64,000 bases of DNA from an uncultured Pelagibacteraceae bacterium. GTDB lineage: Bacteria; Pseudomonadota; Alphaproteobacteria; Pelagibacterales; AG-422-B15. A program made the position numbers and the translations under genes. A model generated the notes under the pieces. That model worked only from the letters and a program-made list of their open reading frames with translations. It had not been told where the DNA came from and did not search any database. The stretch lies in contig CACNXQ010000002.1 in NCBI GenBank assembly GCA_902624455.1, positions 60,155 through 124,154 on the forward strand, written 5' to 3'. Shown one piece after another: positions 13,466-41,995 of this stretch. Within the stretch, counting starts at the first letter, position 1. Every line of letters starts with the position of its first letter.

Positions 13466-14329
13466 ATGACTAATCTTAAGGGAAAAACATTATTTATTAC
13501 TGGTGCAACTCGAGGAATTGGATTTGCTATTGCTAAAAGAGCTGCTGAGGACGGAGCTAATATAGCAATCATAGCAAAGACCACTGAGCCACATCCAAAA
13601 TTACCAGGAACTATCTTTACCGCAGCAGAGGAATTAAATGCAGCTGGAGGTAATGCTATTGGAATTAAAACAGATATTCGTTTTGAAGATCAAGTCATAG
13701 CGGCCGTTGATCAGACCGTAGAGAAATTTGGCGGTATTGATATTTGCGTTAATAACGCAAGTGCAATCAGTCTTACGCCTACTCTTCAAACGGACATGAA
13801 AAGATATGATTTAATGCACGGCATCAATACTCGTGGAACATTTCTTGTCTCAAAATGCTGCATACCTCACCTCAAAAAGGGAACCAATCCTCATATTTTA
13901 AATCTTGGTCCACCACTTAATATGGAGAGCCAGTGGTTTAGTCCTCACGTTGCATACACTATGGCAAAATATGGTATGAGTATGTGTACTTTAGGAATGT
14001 CAGAAGAATTAAAATCATCAGGCATTGCCGTAAATTCATTATGGCCAAGAACTATGATCAATACTGCAGCAGTAAATAATATATTGGCACTATCGATGGA
14101 AGACAAAGGCGTAAGTAAATGTCGAACACCTGCTATTATGGGTGATGCAGCATATCTTATTCTTACACAGGACTCTAAAAAGTTTACAGGTAACATGTGT
14201 GTTGATGACAGTACCATTATCAAGTCTGGTAAAACTGATTTAACAGAGTATTTAGCAACTCCTGATGCTGAACCTTTTCCTGATTTCTTTGTAAATGAGA
14301 ACGATGGTACTGATATTGCTCTAGACTAA
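13466..14329 (+). CDS. Short-chain dehydrogenase/reductase (SDR) family oxidoreductase
   Basis: TGATRGIG cofactor motif, NNAS, and catalytic YTMAK (YxxxK). Confidence 0.85.
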   Translation: MTNLKGKTLFITGATRGIGFAIAKRAAEDGANIAIIAKTTEPHPKLPGTIFTAAEELNAAGGNAIGIKTDIRFEDQVIAAVDQTVEKFGGIDICVNNASAISLTPTLQTDMKRYDLMHGINTRGTFLVSKCCIPHLKKGTNPHILNLGPPLNMESQWFSPHVAYTMAKYGMSMCTLGMSEELKSSGIAVNSLWPRTMINTAAVNNILALSMEDKGVSKCRTPAIMGDAAYLILTQDSKKFTGNMCVDDSTIIKSGKTDLTEYLATPDAEPFPDFFVNENDGTDIALD

Positions 14330-14341
14330 ACGATCAAAGTA

Positions 14342-14455
14342 ATGGAACGGTTTAACTTTCGACAATTCTTACAGATACTTTATAGGATTTTAACCTTTCC
14401 GATTTTAGGATTAATCATTCTTGGATTAGTTTTATTGTTGATGAATGTATTCTAA
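14342..14455 (+). CDS. Candidate 37-aa single-TM peptide
   Basis: Manual translation gives MERFNFRQFLQILYRILTFPILGLIILGLVLLLMNVF. It lies 12 nt after the SDR stop with no clear SD. Its stop abuts the stop of the convergent Zn-ribbon gene. Confidence 0.2.
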   Translation: MERFNFRQFLQILYRILTFPILGLIILGLVLLLMNVF

Positions 14456-14629
14456 TTATTCGTCGAAACGTTTAGTCTTACACGAGTGCATTGTCTCGTC
14501 ATAACTTGGTGCATTTTCACCCGAACAGCATGGATCAATATTAATTTTACAATTTGGACATTGATAATGACCATGAACCTCTATTGGGCTGATTTCATTA
14601 TTACACCAATTACACAGTTGAAGAATCAT
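14456..14629 (-). CDS. Cys-rich zinc-ribbon small protein (57 aa)
   Basis: Below the ORF-track cutoff. Manual translation gives MILQLCNWCNNEISPIEVHGHYQCPNCKINIDPCCSGENAPSYDETMHSCKTKRFDE. It has a paired CxxC...CxxC and an SD AGAGGA just upstream of the ATG. Confidence 0.45.
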   Translation of the reverse strand: MILQLCNWCNNEISPIEVHGHYQCPNCKINIDPCCSGENAPSYDETMHSCKTKRFDE

Positions 14630-14651
14630 TCCTCTTTATACCATTTAGATA

Positions 14652-14846
14652 TTAATTTTGATCTGATTCGATTGCATTGTCTTCATTCATTAAAATGGGC
14701 CTTCCATCATGAGCTGTATTTAATGGTATAATTTTGCCCTTATAACGAACGCATAACGTTGGCGATGATCTTTTCTGTGAGCCAAGGTTTACCTCAAGAT
14801 TTACTAACAAAAGCTCCACATTTTCTATAATTTCGAGAATTTTCAT
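14652..14846 (-). CDS. Hypothetical small protein (64 aa)
   Basis: ORF track entry. It lies 22 nt upstream of the Zn-ribbon gene on the same strand. No family recognised. Confidence 0.4.
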   Translation of the reverse strand: MKILEIIENVELLLVNLEVNLGSQKRSSPTLCVRYKGKIIPLNTAHDGRPILMNEDNAIESDQN

Positions 14847-14920
14847 ATTTTCACTGTTTTCCTAATTTTTTTATTTAATACATTGATTTTTTATAACTTT
14901 TATATAAAAGGTGCAACAAT

Positions 14921-15173
14921 CCACGTTATCATCAAAAGCTTAAATACCCACAAGGTGTTTAAGCTTTTTTCATTTTACATTAACAAAAATCTACAGAGCT
15001 GCTATCATCTATTCTGATGATTAACGTGGAGGTTAAAAAGATGGTGCCACCAACAATTTAGAGGGTGGTGGCCAAAACCGTCTCAACAAAATATTTTAGT
15101 CTGTACAAACAGACGACTGCAAAAAAGCAGTTTACATAATAAAAATCCCATTCAAACGAATGGGATTTTTTTT
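14921..15173 (+). ncRNA. Candidate structured small RNA / RNA switch (unknown family); strand and 5' end uncertain
   Basis: Long-range helix 14921-14934/15015-15029. Hairpins at 14935-14967 (10 bp, followed by a T-run), 15046-15072, 15099-15114 and 15116-15131. Terminator at 15141-15173. No ORF longer than a few codons. Confidence 0.3.
15141..15173. terminator. Rho-independent terminator, bidirectional
   Basis: Perfect 13-bp stem AAAAATCCCATTC / GAATGGGATTTTT with an AAAC loop. It is followed by a T-run on the + strand and by TTTTAT on the - strand, immediately after the stop of 15172..15582. Confidence 0.75.
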
Positions 15174-15582
15174 ATAGATAACTGATGATCAGAAAAATTG
15201 AAATTAAAAGTTGAATAATAAATATTAACACTGAGAAAAAATGAAGTGCTTTAAACATTTTAACAGCATTTTCATTACCACTTAATTGCAAATCACGATA
15301 CGTGTTAATTCTTGGTGTTATGATATAGGCATTGATAAGAAATAAAAAAGCTGTGATCAATGATAATGACCAGTACATTGATAGTTCAGCAAATAAAGCG
15401 CTCAAAGACGCTAATAAAGATAAAATAAATCCATAAATAAACATCCTTGGAAAAATAATTCTAAGGAACTTGCCAGCTTGTTGTTCATCAAGACTCTTAA
15501 AAACTGTTGGTGTCACAATTGACATAAAAAAGATCATAAAACCAATTATGAGGCTGTGTATAAAAATTGTTAAAAATAACAT
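15172..15582 (-). CDS. Integral membrane protein, DUF4149 (TMEM205-like)
   Basis: 136 aa with four hydrophobic helices and an FPRMF motif; the family assignment is from memory. Confidence 0.45.
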   Translation of the reverse strand: MLFLTIFIHSLIIGFMIFFMSIVTPTVFKSLDEQQAGKFLRIIFPRMFIYGFILSLLASLSALFAELSMYWSLSLITAFLFLINAYIITPRINTYRDLQLSGNENAVKMFKALHFFSVLIFIIQLLISIFLIISYL

Positions 15583-15657
15583 AAGTTATGTATCTATCCT
15601 TAAAAGAACACATTTTCAACTGTTGAAATCTGTTTCTATCGATTTAAATTTGTAAGT

Positions 15658-15960
15658 ATGTTTATAGCAATGAATAGGTTCAAAATTATATTGGGCTGTG
15701 AAAGTGATTTTGAAGATGTGTGGAGAAACAGAGAGTCTCATCTTGATGAAGTTGAAGGTTTCTTAGGTTTTAATCTTGTTAAAGGTGCAACCACAGAAGA
15801 ATTTACTCTATATGCATCCCATAGTACTTGGAAAAGTCAAAAGCACTTCGAAGCTTGGACTAAATCAGAGTCATTTAGAAAAGCTCATAAAAATGCTGGC
15901 TCAAATAAAAAACTATACATTGGTCATCCTCAATTTGAAGGATTCAATGTTGTTCTCTAA
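15658..15960 (+). CDS. Antibiotic biosynthesis monooxygenase (ABM) domain protein
   Basis: 100 aa; MFIAMNRFKI start and WKSQKHFEAW motif typical of ABM/IsdG-like ferredoxin-fold proteins. Confidence 0.65.
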   Translation: MFIAMNRFKIILGCESDFEDVWRNRESHLDEVEGFLGFNLVKGATTEEFTLYASHSTWKSQKHFEAWTKSESFRKAHKNAGSNKKLYIGHPQFEGFNVVL

Positions 15961-17398
15961 AAAAAGACTATTTAAACATTTGCTAACAGTTATCATTGTT
16001 TATCTATTAAACTGTAACCTAGTGATGGCAGATTTTTTCCAAAATATATCAAATCTTATTGAAAATAATGTAGATCGTCTAAGCTATGGAGTATCGGTAA
16101 CCGATATTAACAAAGACGGCAAATTCGAATTTGTTGTTACAGGTTTTGGCACCGACAATTTGGCCTTAGGATATGAAGATGGCATTATTAAAAATCTTGT
16201 TACAAATAATAATTTCAACGATACAGATAGGAGAACAATTGGAGTTGCTGCGTGTGACATTGATCAAGATGGATATGAAGAAGTTTATTTTTTAAATACT
16301 GATACTTACAGTGGAGAAAAGCAATACTCAGACAGACTTCTCGATATAAAACAAAATCAAATTATTGATTTATTTTCACTAGATAAAAACATGAAGGAAT
16401 TAAATTATACGGCTGGTAGGTCAGTAGCGTGTGTAGATAGAGAAGGTAATGGTAAGTATGGGATATACATTGCAAATTATGGAGGTCCAACACGCTTTTA
16501 TGAATACCACAACGGTTCAATATCGGATAAAGCACCTGAGTTAAAAATTGATCAGATTACGGGCGGTAGAGCCATCGTGGTAGGACATATACTCTCTGAT
16601 TATAATGATATTTTTGCAGCAAATGAGCGAGGTGCGAATTTTCTTTATAGGAATGACAATGGAAATTTTGTTGATGTAGCAAATGAATTTGAAGTTCAGG
16701 ATATTTTCCAAAATGGGAGAGGTACTACCCTATCAAACATTTTCTATGATGGTGAGTTAGGCATAATTAATGGTAACTGGATGGGCTATCATCGCACTTA
16801 CGTTCGTATGGGAGATAAGTTCAAAGATATTGCAAAGCCTGACTTTGATACGCCAACAAGAGTAAGAACTGTTATATCAGCAGATTTTGATAATGATGGC
16901 TATGATGAAGTATTTATAAACAATATAGGTGAGCCTAATAAACTTTTTAAGATCCTACAATCTGGAGAGTTTGAAAAGATAGATTTAAATCAAGCATTAG
17001 AACCAAATGGCCTTGGCACCGGTGCAGCTGTTGCAGATATTGATAATGACGGTATTTTAGAATTATTAATTTCCCATGGTGAAAGTGGAGAGCAACCGTT
17101 ATCTCTCTATAAAGCAAATGTTCCAAGTAATCACAAATTTATTAGAATAAAACCAATAAATACTTTTGGTGCACCTGCACGTGGGGCAACTGTCAAACTT
17201 TACAGCGATCAGAGGATACATGCTAAGACAATTGATGCAGGATCAGGTTATTTATGTCAAATGGAACCAGTTGCACACTATGGTATAAGAAATTCAGAAG
17301 TAATTGAAAAGATAGAAGTGAAATGGACAAATGGTGAAGTAACAGAATATAAAGATATTAAAATCAATGAAACACTAGTAATCAATCAACTAGATTAA
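15947..17398 (+). CDS. Exported FG-GAP/VCBS repeat protein with C-terminal ASPIC/UnbV domain (CRTAC1 family)
   Basis: Start reset to ATG 15947, in frame with the track ORF, just before the upstream stop; signal peptide MLFSKKRLFKHLLTVIIVYLLNCNLVMA. Repeated Ca-binding DxDxDG motifs (DINKDGKFE, DIDQDGYEE, DFDNDGYDE, DIDNDGILE). The C-terminus matches the UnbV_ASPIC pattern (GATVKLYSD...DAGSGYLCQMEPVAHYGI). Confidence 0.75.
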   Translation: MLFSKKRLFKHLLTVIIVYLLNCNLVMADFFQNISNLIENNVDRLSYGVSVTDINKDGKFEFVVTGFGTDNLALGYEDGIIKNLVTNNNFNDTDRRTIGVAACDIDQDGYEEVYFLNTDTYSGEKQYSDRLLDIKQNQIIDLFSLDKNMKELNYTAGRSVACVDREGNGKYGIYIANYGGPTRFYEYHNGSISDKAPELKIDQITGGRAIVVGHILSDYNDIFAANERGANFLYRNDNGNFVDVANEFEVQDIFQNGRGTTLSNIFYDGELGIINGNWMGYHRTYVRMGDKFKDIAKPDFDTPTRVRTVISADFDNDGYDEVFINNIGEPNKLFKILQSGEFEKIDLNQALEPNGLGTGAAVADIDNDGILELLISHGESGEQPLSLYKANVPSNHKFIRIKPINTFGAPARGATVKLYSDQRIHAKTIDAGSGYLCQMEPVAHYGIRNSEVIEKIEVKWTNGEVTEYKDIKINETLVINQLD

Positions 17399-19254: not shown

Positions 19255-19330
19255 TGGCGAGCCCGCTCGGGTTCGAACCGAGGACAACTCCCTTAAAAGG
19301 GGAGTGCTCTACCAACTGAGCTACGGGCTC
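19255..19330 (-). tRNA. tRNA-Lys (anticodon UUU), CCA encoded
   Basis: The reverse complement GAGCCCGUAGCUCAGUUGGUAGAGCACUCCCCUUUUAAGGGAGUUGUCCUCGGUUCGAACCCGAGCGGGCUCGCCA folds as a cloverleaf. It has a 7-bp acceptor stem, anticodon stem CUCCC/GGGAG, loop CUUUUAA and T-loop GGUUCGAAC. Confidence 0.9.
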
Positions 19331-41695: not shown

Positions 41696-41808
41696 ATGTA
41701 TCCAAAATAATTATGTTGAATTAACAATTTTTTCAACAATATTAGCGTTATAATTAGCCTGTAAGTTATTGTAAAAACTGTATATTTTTAAAATAAACCA
41801 CAGCTCCT

Positions 41809-41855
41809 ATACTGCATATAGTATATATTATTTTTTTTTACACAATATGTTGACT
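41809..41855 (+). promoter_or_regulatory. Two candidate NrdR boxes upstream of nrdJ
   Basis: ATACTGCATATAGTAT (41809-41824; 12/16 to the remembered consensus acaCwAtATaTwGtgt) and ACACAATATGTTGACT (41840-41855; 13/16). The starts are 31 bp apart. Box 2 overlaps a -35-like TTGACT. Confidence 0.45.
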
Positions 41856-41995
41856 TAAGAATTCAAATAAATAAATATACTCAATCTAGAACGTTACTCA
41901 AATAAACATTCTGGCGCAACCGGTCGAAAAGCCACATTTCGAAATATTTTTTTCGACTGTAAAAAATTGTCTTTGGAAAAGAGGAATGAATAATT

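Follow-up and report, generated by a model that had tools for sequence, protein, structure and literature searches.

A conserved plus-strand RNA locus of one SAR11 family, with two proposed tandem transcripts

What does an apparently empty stretch between the genes of a SAR11 bacterium encode, on which strand, and does it belong to a known RNA family? In the window (the whole stretch of 64,000 nucleotides that was analysed), positions 14847-15171 form the longest internal ORF-free stretch when ORFs of at least 60 aa are masked; the one longer stretch under that masking lies at the edge where the window was cut. An original prediction, made from the same letters, had singled out this gap as the longest of the window, described it as non-coding, densely structured and closed by a strong terminator, and proposed either a stand-alone plus-strand RNA or a minus-strand leader of two micro-genes. 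Its ranking of the gap held, and each of the helices it listed was found again in place. The plus strand folded with a minimum free energy of −93.3 kcal/mol, compared with an average of −53.2 for shuffled sequences (z = −8.54; 0/100 folded as well), in agreement with the dense structure claimed, and the minus strand gave z = −6.42 against shuffles. The statement that no ORF exceeds a few codons was inexact, as a TTG frame of 44 codons is present at 14883-15017; in same-genus relatives, whose sequences were read by eye, this frame ends after 8 codons. The results described below indicate that the gap is a conserved, self-contained and putatively regulatory plus-strand RNA locus of one SAR11 family.

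Distribution, neighbourhood and strand of the locus

Covariance model R1 was used for the family count. The locus was detected in 33 of the 60 genomes of one SAR11 family (f1), as a single full-length copy and always on this strand, with R1 copies in 22/46 genomes of genus g1, 6/6 of g5, 4/5 of g6 and 0/2 of g7. Among genomes of at least 85% completeness, 16/19 of f1 carried the locus versus 0/131 of f2 (Pelagibacteraceae). A 23-nt core, with up to 1 mismatch allowed, was present in 0/400 other alphaproteobacterial genomes, and viral contigs gave 0 matches to the core block. Full or end-cut R1 matches accounted for 42 of 46 metagenome loci; L115, L117, L118 and L123 were pattern matches rather than R1 matches and were treated as chance.

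Blocks of 15-25 nt were invariant across three genera, and the remaining intergenic DNA there could not be aligned. The genes on the two sides differed between lineages. The flanks are a 64-aa and a 136-aa gene in the window and a 57-aa and a 209-aa gene in g1, where the upstream gene is divergent; in g5 and g6 one flank is lpdA, which precedes the element and shares its strand, and the other is a gene of 195-200 aa. Pfam searches of the neighbour proteins returned only DUF4149, SDR, GYD, ABM and weak zinc-finger matches, which were functionally uninformative. The unit from the first putative promoter (Pa) to the final terminator was intact in all neighbourhoods and outlasted two or more changes of neighbours; in every context the next gene was convergent. 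The predicted stand-alone plus-strand RNA locus is thus real and conserved.

Alignment of the relatives, a check for which the original prediction had called, gave a consensus fold with 93.2% of cells paired and 17 pairs changed on both sides, which none of 500 shuffles reached. When the alignment was read as plus strand, 97 cells were G.U wobbles versus 13 A.C cells, favouring the plus strand. Both P1, the long-range helix, and P2, the hairpin within it, have support from covariation.

Sequence elements and their conservation

The elements of the locus are listed in order of position.

14883-14910, plus strand: Pa, putative promoter; −35 TTGATT (14883-14888), 16-nt spacer and −10-like TAAAAG (14905-14910); predicted start near 14915-14918.
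14915-14971, plus strand: RNA-1, proposed transcript of about 55 nt consisting of the seed, then P2, then U6; its ends are provisional.
14921-14934, plus strand: 5' arm of helix P1, CCACGTTATCATCA; the same segment is the RNA-1 seed, AAUCCACGUUAUCAUCA, proposed to be single-stranded.
14934-14968, plus strand: hairpin P2, with T6 next (U6 run, 14965-14970).
14980-15008, plus strand: Pb, putative internal promoter; −35 TTAACA (14980-14985), 17-nt spacer ending in TGC and −10 TATCAT (15003-15008); predicted start near 15014-15016.
15003-15009, plus strand: second copy of TATCATC, overlapping the Pb −10.
15015-15029, plus strand: 3' arm of helix P1, TGATGATTAACGTGG.
15015-15032, plus strand: P1 3' arm with the Shine-Dalgarno (SD) sequence GGAGG (15028-15032); proposed 5' end of RNA-2 and binding site of RNA-1.
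15031-15079, plus strand: hairpin P3, with the start and Pro codons inside it.
15031-15034 and 15076-15079, plus strand: P3 lower stem, GGUU/AACC, 99% paired.
15041-15061, plus strand: mini-ORF, ATG GTG CCA CCA ACA ATT TAG (MVPPTI), 8 nt past the SD; putatively translated.
15046-15052 and 15066-15072, plus strand: P3 upper stem, GCCACCA/UGGUGGC, 80.8% paired.
From 15073, plus strand: start of the tail, CCAAAACC, overlapping the P3 lower stem.
15080-15098, plus strand: single-stranded GUCUCAACAAAAUAUUUUA, in the tail (15080-15131).
15099-15114, plus strand: H4 hairpin, GTCTGT-ACAA-ACAGAC.
15116-15131, plus strand: H5 hairpin, ACTGC-A6-GCAGT, only in the window type and g6.
15141-15175, both strands: bidirectional intrinsic terminator with a 13-bp stem (15141-15173); T8 on the plus and T5 on the minus strand.

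At Pa, TTG lies at constant spacing to a TA-initial hexamer in all lineages, with flanks that cannot be aligned; the weakness of the match is that in the g1 and g5 types the hexamer ends in a base other than T. As the upstream gene is divergent in g1, Pa must exist there. The linker downstream of P2 was unconserved apart from a promoter pattern, TTnACA, 16-17 nt, (TGn)TAnnnT, which ends 5-6 nt before the P1 3' arm across lineages and, by its −10, reads on the plus strand only. Pb scored 10/12 matches plus TG in the promoter scan; promoter-like hexamers are common in this AT-rich genome (10 in the scan versus 8.2 expected). The −10 hexamers by lineage are TATTAT, TATCAT, TAGACT, TAGTAT, TAAAAT and TAATAA, in which T1 and A2 were always kept and T6 was kept except in the g5 type. 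Every lineage has either the TG extension or a good −35 at Pb, the lineages that lack TG carrying TTGTCA or TTGTAA at 16 nt. The promoter pattern of the variable linker and the intrinsic-terminator form of P2 had both been overlooked earlier.

The second TATCATC had been interpreted as a competitor for the P1 3' arm and hence as the core of a switch. Complementarity of the box to that arm exists in g6 and the window type; in the main g1 type it includes a wobble. The pairing is absent in L045 (TAGACT), L091 (TAGTAT), L102 (TAAAAT) and the g5 type (TAATAA), which argues against the switch, and these non-pairing boxes still fit a −10 promoter hexamer.

Pairing of P1 reached 98.3% over 26 sequences, and 3 of its pairs had both sides changed (e.g. 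U:A to A:U in L102); the seed YCACGTTATCAT was near-invariant across lineages. Both arms are conserved beyond the need for pairing, for which the two-transcript model described below has no explanation. In P2, 11 of the 15 pairs were changed on both sides, and the stem sequence was swapped between genera with the A-tract, the GC-containing stem and the T6-7 run staying in place. P2 was scored as terminator-like by the scan that found Pb and has all features of the gene-end terminators of this genome; its GC-containing stem with a U-run was found in nearly all lineages, the run being broken in L102. P2 has the shape of an intrinsic terminator, at which termination is predicted.

An invariant GGAGG and an 8-nt gap lead to a start codon and a Met-x-Pro-Pro frame of 5-22 codons, which lies inside P3. 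The gap therefore carries an SD-led mini-ORF, of 6 codons in the window, that had escaped notice when the gap was called non-coding. Frames among the distinct copies read MTPPT[LVS], MVPPT[IV], MNPPA, MNPPT, MSPPKSYG, or 18-22 aa beginning with MxPP; the longer ones, of the g5 type, have no early stop and carry variable tails. The starts are ATG or TTG, and Pro-Pro was kept, including by synonymous CCG in two lineages. By a crude count that took the first ATG as the start, GGAGG within 20 nt upstream was found at only 2 of the 1098 long ORFs of the genome, in which the 16S 3' end is canonical. The codons CCA CCA form the P3 5' arm, so that a short SD-led ORF has codons overlapping a stem. No pair of the P3 upper stem was changed on both sides, and a C.A mismatch was present in 7/26 sequences (the GGUAGUG variant). 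The conservation of Pro-Pro is inseparable from that of the CCACCA:UGGUGG helix.

Downstream of P3 a CCAMAACYAUYU tract is conserved, and a small H4-like hairpin of other sequence was predicted at the equal place in 9/9 lineages folded. A duplex search with a 37-nt query for targets of this tail gave long-loop artefacts only. The final terminator was as described, with a perfect stem and its longest T-run on the plus strand. It would form the 3' end of RNA-2 on the plus strand and serves the 136-aa DUF4149 gene on the minus strand; because the stop codon of that gene (15172-15174, minus strand) lies inside the T-run, the terminator is shared and bidirectional. In all lineages this site holds a GC-rich hairpin and its T-run, ahead of a convergent gene. 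Sequence inspection of each lineage for an attenuator revealed no conserved pairing of the P3 3' arm with the 5' arm of the final terminator.

Rfam and related searches assigned the gap to no known family, as had been supposed. Rfam 15 gave a single match in the whole window, a tRNA at 19258-19330; at E ≤ 10, region 14600-15400 gave 21 weak matches, of which almost all fell on the final terminator and the strongest scored 27.6 bits versus a threshold of 54, and the loci of five relatives gave 0 matches. Matches to the ohsC and AgrB models were confined to the terminator and lay far under threshold. For tmRNA, ARAGORN was blank at 14000-16000 and RF01849 matched elsewhere in the genome (230.8 bits). 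A tRNA-like or tmRNA reading of GCCACCA ... GGGUGGUG was rejected, as the acceptor-stem registers have neither G3.U70 nor a CCA end, and ARAGORN and Rfam were both negative for it. For 6S RNA, RF00013 was unmatched at the locus and genome-wide, and the locus forms three separate helices rather than a rod. For a possible likeness of GGGUGGUG to T-box RNAs, RF00230 gave no match at E ≤ 10. A riboswitch was likewise rejected: in place of a conserved ligand-binding core, the stem and loop of P2 are free to vary, as is the linker, which would be the junction, with only the promoter-like boxes kept, and the next gene in the window, g1, g5 and g6 is convergent, leaving no regulated same-strand gene downstream.

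Proposed tandem RNAs and alternative readings

We give about an even chance to the reading that the locus consists of two tandem plus-strand transcription units, RNA-1 (about 55 nt) and RNA-2 (about 150-165 nt), with RNA-1 masking RNA-2. Transcription from Pa would yield RNA-1, which would carry a free 5' seed, CCACGUUAUCAUC, and end at the intrinsic terminator P2. Pb, right after this terminator, would start RNA-2, whose first nucleotides would be the exact complement of the seed, followed by a perfect GGAGGU site, an 8-nt spacer, the tiny Met-x-Pro-Pro-x frame with its Pro codons in one arm of P3, small hairpins and, last, the strong terminator. RNA-1 would pair with the first 13-17 nt of RNA-2, and in read-through transcripts the 5' arm would pair in cis. 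Loading of ribosomes on the mini-ORF would then be blocked, since P1-type pairing would cover the GGA of the ribosome-binding site and the P3 lower stem its other GG; RNase III may also cut the duplex. On a free site, a ribosome translating the mini-ORF and slowed at Pro-Pro would have to melt P3, by which the conserved GGGUGGUG-CCACAAC tract would be freed.

The predicted RNA-1:RNA-2 duplex has 13-17 bp and a gain of −14 to −21 kcal/mol in 9 lineages, and the RNA-2 5' region is the best match of the genome to the seed, the seed's own antisense strand aside (−20.9 kcal/mol; the runner-up, within a coding region resembling the end of tpiA, reached −20.3). No second genome site was found within 2 mismatches of the window's 3' arm plus SD, and genome-wide complement and duplex scans and a scan of 3873 candidate start regions gave no convincing RNA-1 target beyond the RNA-2 5' end. 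Genes for EF-P and RNase III are present in the genome, in which no Hfq gene was found. Metatranscriptome data give a weak sign of expression: RNA-library contigs from two studies cover 15032-15130 and 15033-15204, and their ends at 15032/15033 coincide with the 3' edge of the P1 duplex. These contigs are strandless and have a depth of 4-6, DNA may be among their sources, and their ends may reflect breaks in assembly. The contig of X20 extends 30 nt beyond the terminator, the X21 and X22 contigs cover flanking genes only, and another RNA-library contig covers 14665-14917. Positions 14918-15031 were uncovered by the contigs of 4 runs, which is uninformative on RNA-1 because a 55-nt RNA would be lost from such libraries.

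A further step, which we regard as speculative and unlikely, is that the pair acts as a growth-control module resembling a toxin-antitoxin system without a toxin protein, in which the RNA-2 minigene would trap ribosomes and RNA-1 would silence it. Translation of the Met-x-Pro-Pro minigene, driven by what would be the strongest ribosome-binding site of a genome in which such sites are rare, would stall or recycle ribosomes and tie up Pro-tRNA or EF-P, RNA-1 would act by masking that site, and the locus would then be an RNA-only brake on, or gauge of, translation capacity in SAR11.

The same elements could instead belong to a single transcript from Pa to the final terminator, in which P2 merely stabilises and P1 keeps the ribosome-binding site closed in cis until a signal (temperature, a protein or an RNA on the 5' arm) opens this cis-folded sRNA or mini-ORF RNA. 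This reading is possible, if rather doubtful. P1, P2 and P3 form together when the full stretch is folded, both by minimum free energy and by consensus, the need for Pa in g1 suits it, and P2 could be a mere long hairpin because its T-run, thus partly accounted for, also pairs with the A-tract. It does not account for the full set of gene-end terminator features in P2, nor for a −10/−35 pattern held at constant distance from the 3' arm despite changes of letters; the contigs, which start at 15032/15033 and of which none spans 14918-15031, also argue weakly against it. A small peptide as the product, with RNA-2 as the mRNA of a 5-22-residue Met-x-Pro-Pro micro-protein with a structured UTR, would fit the strong SD, the optimal spacing, the ATG/TTG starts and the retention of Pro-Pro despite CCG changes, and we nevertheless consider it improbable: only M-x-P-P is common to frames of 5-22 residues with unrelated tails, the g5-type tails read the conserved RNA tract in a frame other than that of g1, and codons 5 and 6 co-change with the opposite P3 arm (CCAGAA/UUCUGG, CCAGC/GCUGG), indicating a constraint on the RNA rather than on a peptide.

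Three readings dispense with a dedicated plus-strand RNA. On the minus strand the region might be a 5' leader, as was originally also offered, or a promoter region for the micro-genes at 14846-14456. The good fold of that strand (z = −6.42), the contig over 14665-14917 and the position of the element, which in minus-strand orientation precedes the 57-aa gene in g1 and the window, are consistent with this. The idea fails in two genera that lack those genes, g5 and g6, where the element follows lpdA on the plus strand and neither micro-gene is present; the 57-aa gene occurs without the element in at least 7 same-genus genomes (G004, G010, G011, G013, G017, G020 and G021), and the G.U excess and the −10 pattern belong to the plus strand, so that this leader is scarcely credible. 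An equally far-fetched reading at the DNA level takes the 14-bp inverted repeats as the bounds of an invertible promoter segment for phase variation. Near-perfect inverted repeats 80-95 bp apart do surround a promoter-like site and a symmetric terminator, whereas a single orientation was found in 108/108 two-armed loci (60 distinct sequences), arm mismatches were almost all G.U-compatible on one strand, and no recombinase gene was among the neighbours; the segment is also very short for site-specific inversion. That promoters and gene-end terminators have simply accumulated between convergent and divergent genes, with no dedicated function, is suggested by the final hairpin, which doubles as the terminator of the minus-strand gene, and by the commonness of promoter-like hexamers in an AT-rich genome. 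It is very improbable in view of the blocks invariant in three genera amid unalignable intergenic DNA and of a single-copy locus kept, with covariation, through its changes of neighbours.

Comparison with known systems

SAR11 bacteria are among the most abundant marine organisms and are known mostly for riboswitches; to our knowledge their transcription factors are very few, and trans-acting sRNAs have seldom been described from them. The locus is a conserved, single-copy, RNA-only module whose own putative promoters and terminators were kept through neighbourhood changes, with a ribosome-binding site that is exceptional for a genome in which such sites are hardly ever used, and it thereby gives a concrete way into the post-transcriptional control of a streamlined oligotroph. 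No description of an sRNA combined with a Pro-Pro mini-frame was found in the titles and abstract openings of the literature searched.

As in translational riboswitches and RNA thermometers, the 3' strand of the closing helix overlaps the SD; unlike them, the locus has no conserved junction or loop core and no regulated gene, and the enclosed segment resembles a terminator and a promoter. The dual-function sRNAs SgrS/SgrT, RNAIII/hld and SR1/SR1P encode peptides of 26-43 residues that are conserved as proteins. RNA-2 would share with them a stand-alone length of 150-165 nt, its own terminator and an ORF beside conserved unpaired tracts; it differs in that its peptide is not conserved as a protein and the target search with its tail found none.

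In Salmonella, the mgtP and mgtL frames in the mgtCBR and mgtA leaders are likewise reported to be very short and SD-led, with consecutive Pro codons in one arm of a stem-loop (PMC3641672, PMC5299641). With Pro codons in a stem arm, the fold of the RNA could be decided by how fast the ribosome passes Pro-Pro, a speed dependent on EF-P and Pro-tRNA. Those frames lie in cis leaders of long operons with attenuators, whereas nothing follows on the same strand in three contexts here. Alternative pairing with the final terminator, as in the mgtP, mgtL and trpL attenuators, was not found at this locus. Toxic minigenes, of which phage lambda bar is an example, resemble it in another respect. Their combination of a strong SD with a frame of few codons and no obvious peptide function is found here as well, and such frames can trap ribosomes or peptidyl-tRNA (PMC2490762). 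The frame described here differs from them in lying inside a conserved structured RNA with a dedicated, proposed masking partner.

In the type I toxin-antitoxin systems tisB/istR-1, zorO/orzO and shoB/ohsC, an sRNA made from its own promoter acts in trans by base-pairing to the 5' region of a neighbouring mRNA. The locus resembles these in its two small adjacent units, its single-copy and portable nature, and the complementarity (13-17 nt) of the 5' end of a short sRNA to the 5' UTR and ribosome-binding site of its neighbour; a block of translation would result and RNase III cleavage would be possible, provided that the transcripts are separate, as we infer. The units here are tandem rather than divergent or overlapping. 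Type I toxins are hydrophobic, typically of 20-60 aa with a membrane helix, whereas the frames here are polar and of 5-22 codons; being this short, not hydrophobic and conserved only in Met-x-Pro-Pro, the ORF encodes no toxin-like protein. If the two-RNA reading is true, the locus would be a compact natural pair of an sRNA and its target, with the ribosome occupancy of a Pro-Pro mini-frame as its output.

Structure and covariation of the locus

The structured gap at 14847–15175 (+ strand) is a real and conserved RNA locus whose two-part design is unusual. With ORFs of at least 60 aa masked, no internal gap of the window was longer than 14847–15171, and re-reading of the sequence recovered every helix and element of the original prediction in its place. 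The dense structure it described was borne out by folding 14847–15180 against dinucleotide shuffles (100 per strand). The + strand MFE was −93.3 versus a shuffle mean of −53.2 kcal/mol (z −8.54), the − strand gave z −6.42, and 0 of 100 shuffles were as stable on either strand. The claim that no ORF exceeds a few codons is inexact, since a TTG frame has 44 codons in the window (14883–15017); in relatives, as read from their sequences, it ends after 8. A conserved 6-codon frame led by a Shine-Dalgarno sequence (SD) had been overlooked at 15041–15061.

Features of the locus, with pairing and both-sided changes from a 26-sequence alignment (46 pairs).
14883–14910, +: Pa, putative upstream promoter
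14921–14934/15015–15029, +: P1, long-range helix; 14 pairs, 98.3% of cells paired, 3 pairs change both sides
14934–14968, +: P2, enclosed hairpin; 15 pairs, 96.8% of cells paired, 11 pairs change both sides, stem replaced between genera
14980–15008, +: Pb, putative internal promoter; −35 TTCACA, TTAACA, TTGTCA or TTGTAA, then a 16–17 nt spacer; −10 TATTAT, TATCAT, TAGACT, TAGTAT, TAAAAT or TAATAA, ending 5–6 nt before the P1 3′ arm
15028–15032, +: SD, GGAGG
15031–15079, +: P3, hairpin; lower stem GGUU:AACY, 99% of cells paired, no both-sided change; upper stem CCACC:GGUGG, 80.8% of cells paired, no both-sided change, C.A mismatch in 7 of 26
15041–15061, +: mini-ORF
15099–15114, +: H4, hairpin
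15141–15175, both strands: final terminator

Overall, 93.2% of cells were paired and 17 pairs changed on both sides; the covariation score was 0.190 versus 0.106 in shuffles and was reached by 0 of 500. Shifting the structure by 1–3 columns as a control left just 36–59% paired. A small H4-like hairpin and a GC-rich terminator are present in every lineage, with differing sequences.

Distribution and novelty

R1, a covariance model trained on the window's copy and ten more from the same genus, found exactly one full-length copy each in 33 of the 60 genomes of the element's SAR11 family (genus g1, 22 of 46; g5, 6 of 6; g6, 4 of 5; g7, 0 of 2) and matched 16 of the 19 family genomes that are at least 85% complete. 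The window's genome is 1.32 Mb in size and the window has 32% G+C. At this completeness, none of 131 genomes of the sister family, to which the complete 1.2–1.5-Mb genomes belong, had an R1 match. With at most one mismatch allowed, none of 400 other alphaproteobacterial genomes and no viral contig had the 23-nt core, and all 29 loci among the core-motif records bore a SAR11 label (Pelagibacteraceae or Pelagibacterales). In metagenomes, 46 loci showed the core pattern and 42 of these matched R1; L115, L117, L118 and L123 carry the pattern and have no R1 match.

The element matched no Rfam family, in line with the original prediction. At gathering thresholds, cmscan against Rfam matched only a tRNA in the whole window; at E up to 10, the element region gave 21 weak matches, nearly all at the final terminator, and the loci of five relatives gave none. 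ARAGORN made no tmRNA or tRNA call at the element, and tmRNA identity was rejected, the two-piece tmRNA of this genome being located elsewhere. The whole genome (99% complete) matched neither RF00013 (6S) nor the Hfq family, for both of which control genomes matched as expected. A second ORF-free gap (41696–41995, 300 bp, AT-rich), in which a patch richer in GC (GGCGCAACCGGTCGAAAAGCC...) directly precedes a start codon, had no Rfam match at gathering thresholds.

The locus is previously uncatalogued; a 2009 metatranscriptome study reportedly found many ocean sRNA groups, and overlap with these is possible. In a search for SAR11 sRNA reports, titles and abstract openings gave no account of the locus; PMC5069720 describes mapping to a Pelagibacteraceae genome, one without the element.

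Promoter-like sites, mini-ORF and a proposed pair of RNAs

P2 retains an A-tract, a GC-containing stem and a T6–7 run while the stem letters are replaced, and by its sequence looks like a terminator. The linker behind it is unconserved apart from the Pb pattern, which looks like a promoter and carries a TG extension in lineages whose −35 is poor; the TATCATC copy originally read as a competing pairing arm is its −10 box. At Pa, the promoter-like pattern (TTGnnn, 16–17 nt, TAnnnn) keeps fixed spacing with a weaker hexamer than that of Pb.

The P1 3′ arm leads into the invariant block GTGGAGGTTAAAAAG, which comprises GGAGG and an 8-nt spacer and is followed by ATG or TTG and a frame reading x-Pro-Pro-x (MVPPTI, MTPPT[LVS], MNPPA, MNPPT, MSPPKSYG). 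In g5-type copies the frame has 18–22 codons with unrelated tails. Pro-Pro is retained despite synonymous CCG changes in two lineages, and codons 5 and 6 vary in step with the opposite P3 arm. M-x-P-P appears to be the sole conserved-peptide-like feature, inseparable from the conserved helix. In this genome, a crude count taking the first ATG as the start placed GGAGG upstream of just 2 of 1098 long ORFs and GGAG upstream of 58; the 16S 3′ end (anti-SD) is canonical despite this rarity.

Separately, L118 (262–442, −) and L123, GC-rich metagenome contigs from an unrelated organism, carry the 15-nt block GTGGAGGTTAAAAAG followed by ATG, a variable codon and CCA CCC in a 12-codon frame (MIPPDAPRSADN or MIPPDASRSVDN) with its own promoter-like site and terminator. 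In its fold (z −4.5), the start codon and Pro codons pair with the SD. Chance is a plausible source of this likeness for a 19-base pattern.

We propose two tandem transcription units. RNA-1 (~14915–14971) would consist of a seed and a terminator, and RNA-2 (~15014–15175) would have the seed's complement at its beginning. Across nine lineages, a gain of −14 to −21 kcal/mol is predicted for the duplex, and the RNA-2 5′ end is the best partner of the RNA-1 seed in the genome. Of the SD, the duplex would mask GGA and the lower stem of P3 the other GG, so ribosome loading would be blocked. RNase III, whose gene was found in this genome, might cleave the duplex; a ribosome on the mini-ORF would open P3, with a pause possible at Pro-Pro (a gene for EF-P was also found).

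Logan contigs from four runs (depth 4–6, strandless, DNA possibly included) give a weak hint of transcription. Two RNA libraries from two studies yielded contigs over 15032–15130 and 15033–15204, both ending at 15032/15033, where the P1 duplex has its 3′ edge, ~17 nt past the predicted Pb start; one RNA-library contig extends 30 nt beyond the terminator. A third library gave a contig over 14665–14917, and no contig in the four runs covered 14918–15031.

Gene neighbourhood, alternative readings and known systems

In same-genus relatives, the element has a zinc-ribbon-like gene of 57 aa (−) on one side and a convergent membrane gene of 209 aa (−) on the other. The g5 and g6 copies lie downstream of lpdA, sharing its strand, and another convergent membrane gene faces them. 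In the window lineage the element is flanked by the 64-aa and 136-aa genes, which adjoin elsewhere in relatives. The unit has thus stayed intact through at least two neighbour changes. At L015 and L020, the 64-aa (window 14652–14846) and 136-aa DUF4149 (15172–15582) genes adjoin ~40 nt apart at another locus, and the 209-aa gene is absent at the window's element. Judged from sequence, the window arrangement is a local rearrangement, with break points that match the RNA unit ends. The stop codon of the − strand DUF4149 gene falls within the T-run of the final terminator, which is therefore common to both strands. At the g5/g6 loci L046–L052, the stretch from the lpdA stop to P2 (~100 nt upstream of the element) shows no evident terminator; the RNA-1 sequence may therefore double as the 3′ untranslated end of lpdA mRNA. 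A hydrophobic 37-codon ORF (14342–14455, +; MERFNFRQFLQILYRILTFPILGLIILGLVLLLMNVF) that separates the SDR gene from the 57-aa gene is conserved as protein at three loci of the same genus (L005, L043, L045; MEQF[SN]FKQFLQIIYRIL...) and is probably a real gene for a small membrane protein.

The original prediction of a stand-alone + strand RNA agrees with the intact unit and with 97 G.U versus 13 A.C cells on that strand (20 and 6 of 46 pairs), a count biased toward the + strand by an alignment fitted to the + strand model, though a MAFFT alignment gave the same one-sided changes. Its other suggestion, a − strand leader of two micro-genes, is contradicted by this wobble asymmetry and by context: g5/g6 copies lack both micro-genes, and in several genomes of the same genus the 57-aa gene occurs without the element, which therefore cannot be such a leader. 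An invertible promoter is contradicted by a single orientation in 108 of 108 loci (60 distinct sequences), and a functionless element by its conservation. A function centred on the peptide is unlikely, since frame length and tails vary. Both P1 arms are conserved beyond what pairing requires, an excess that the two-RNA model leaves without explanation. A single cis-folded transcript is a less likely, though not negligible, alternative to that model.

The proposed pair of RNAs is similar in design to a type I toxin–antitoxin pair, but the locus lacks a toxin-like protein. Proline-codon leader ORFs such as mgtP and mgtL (PMC3641672, PMC5299641) are alike, but the locus has nothing downstream. 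It also resembles toxic minigenes (PMC2490762).
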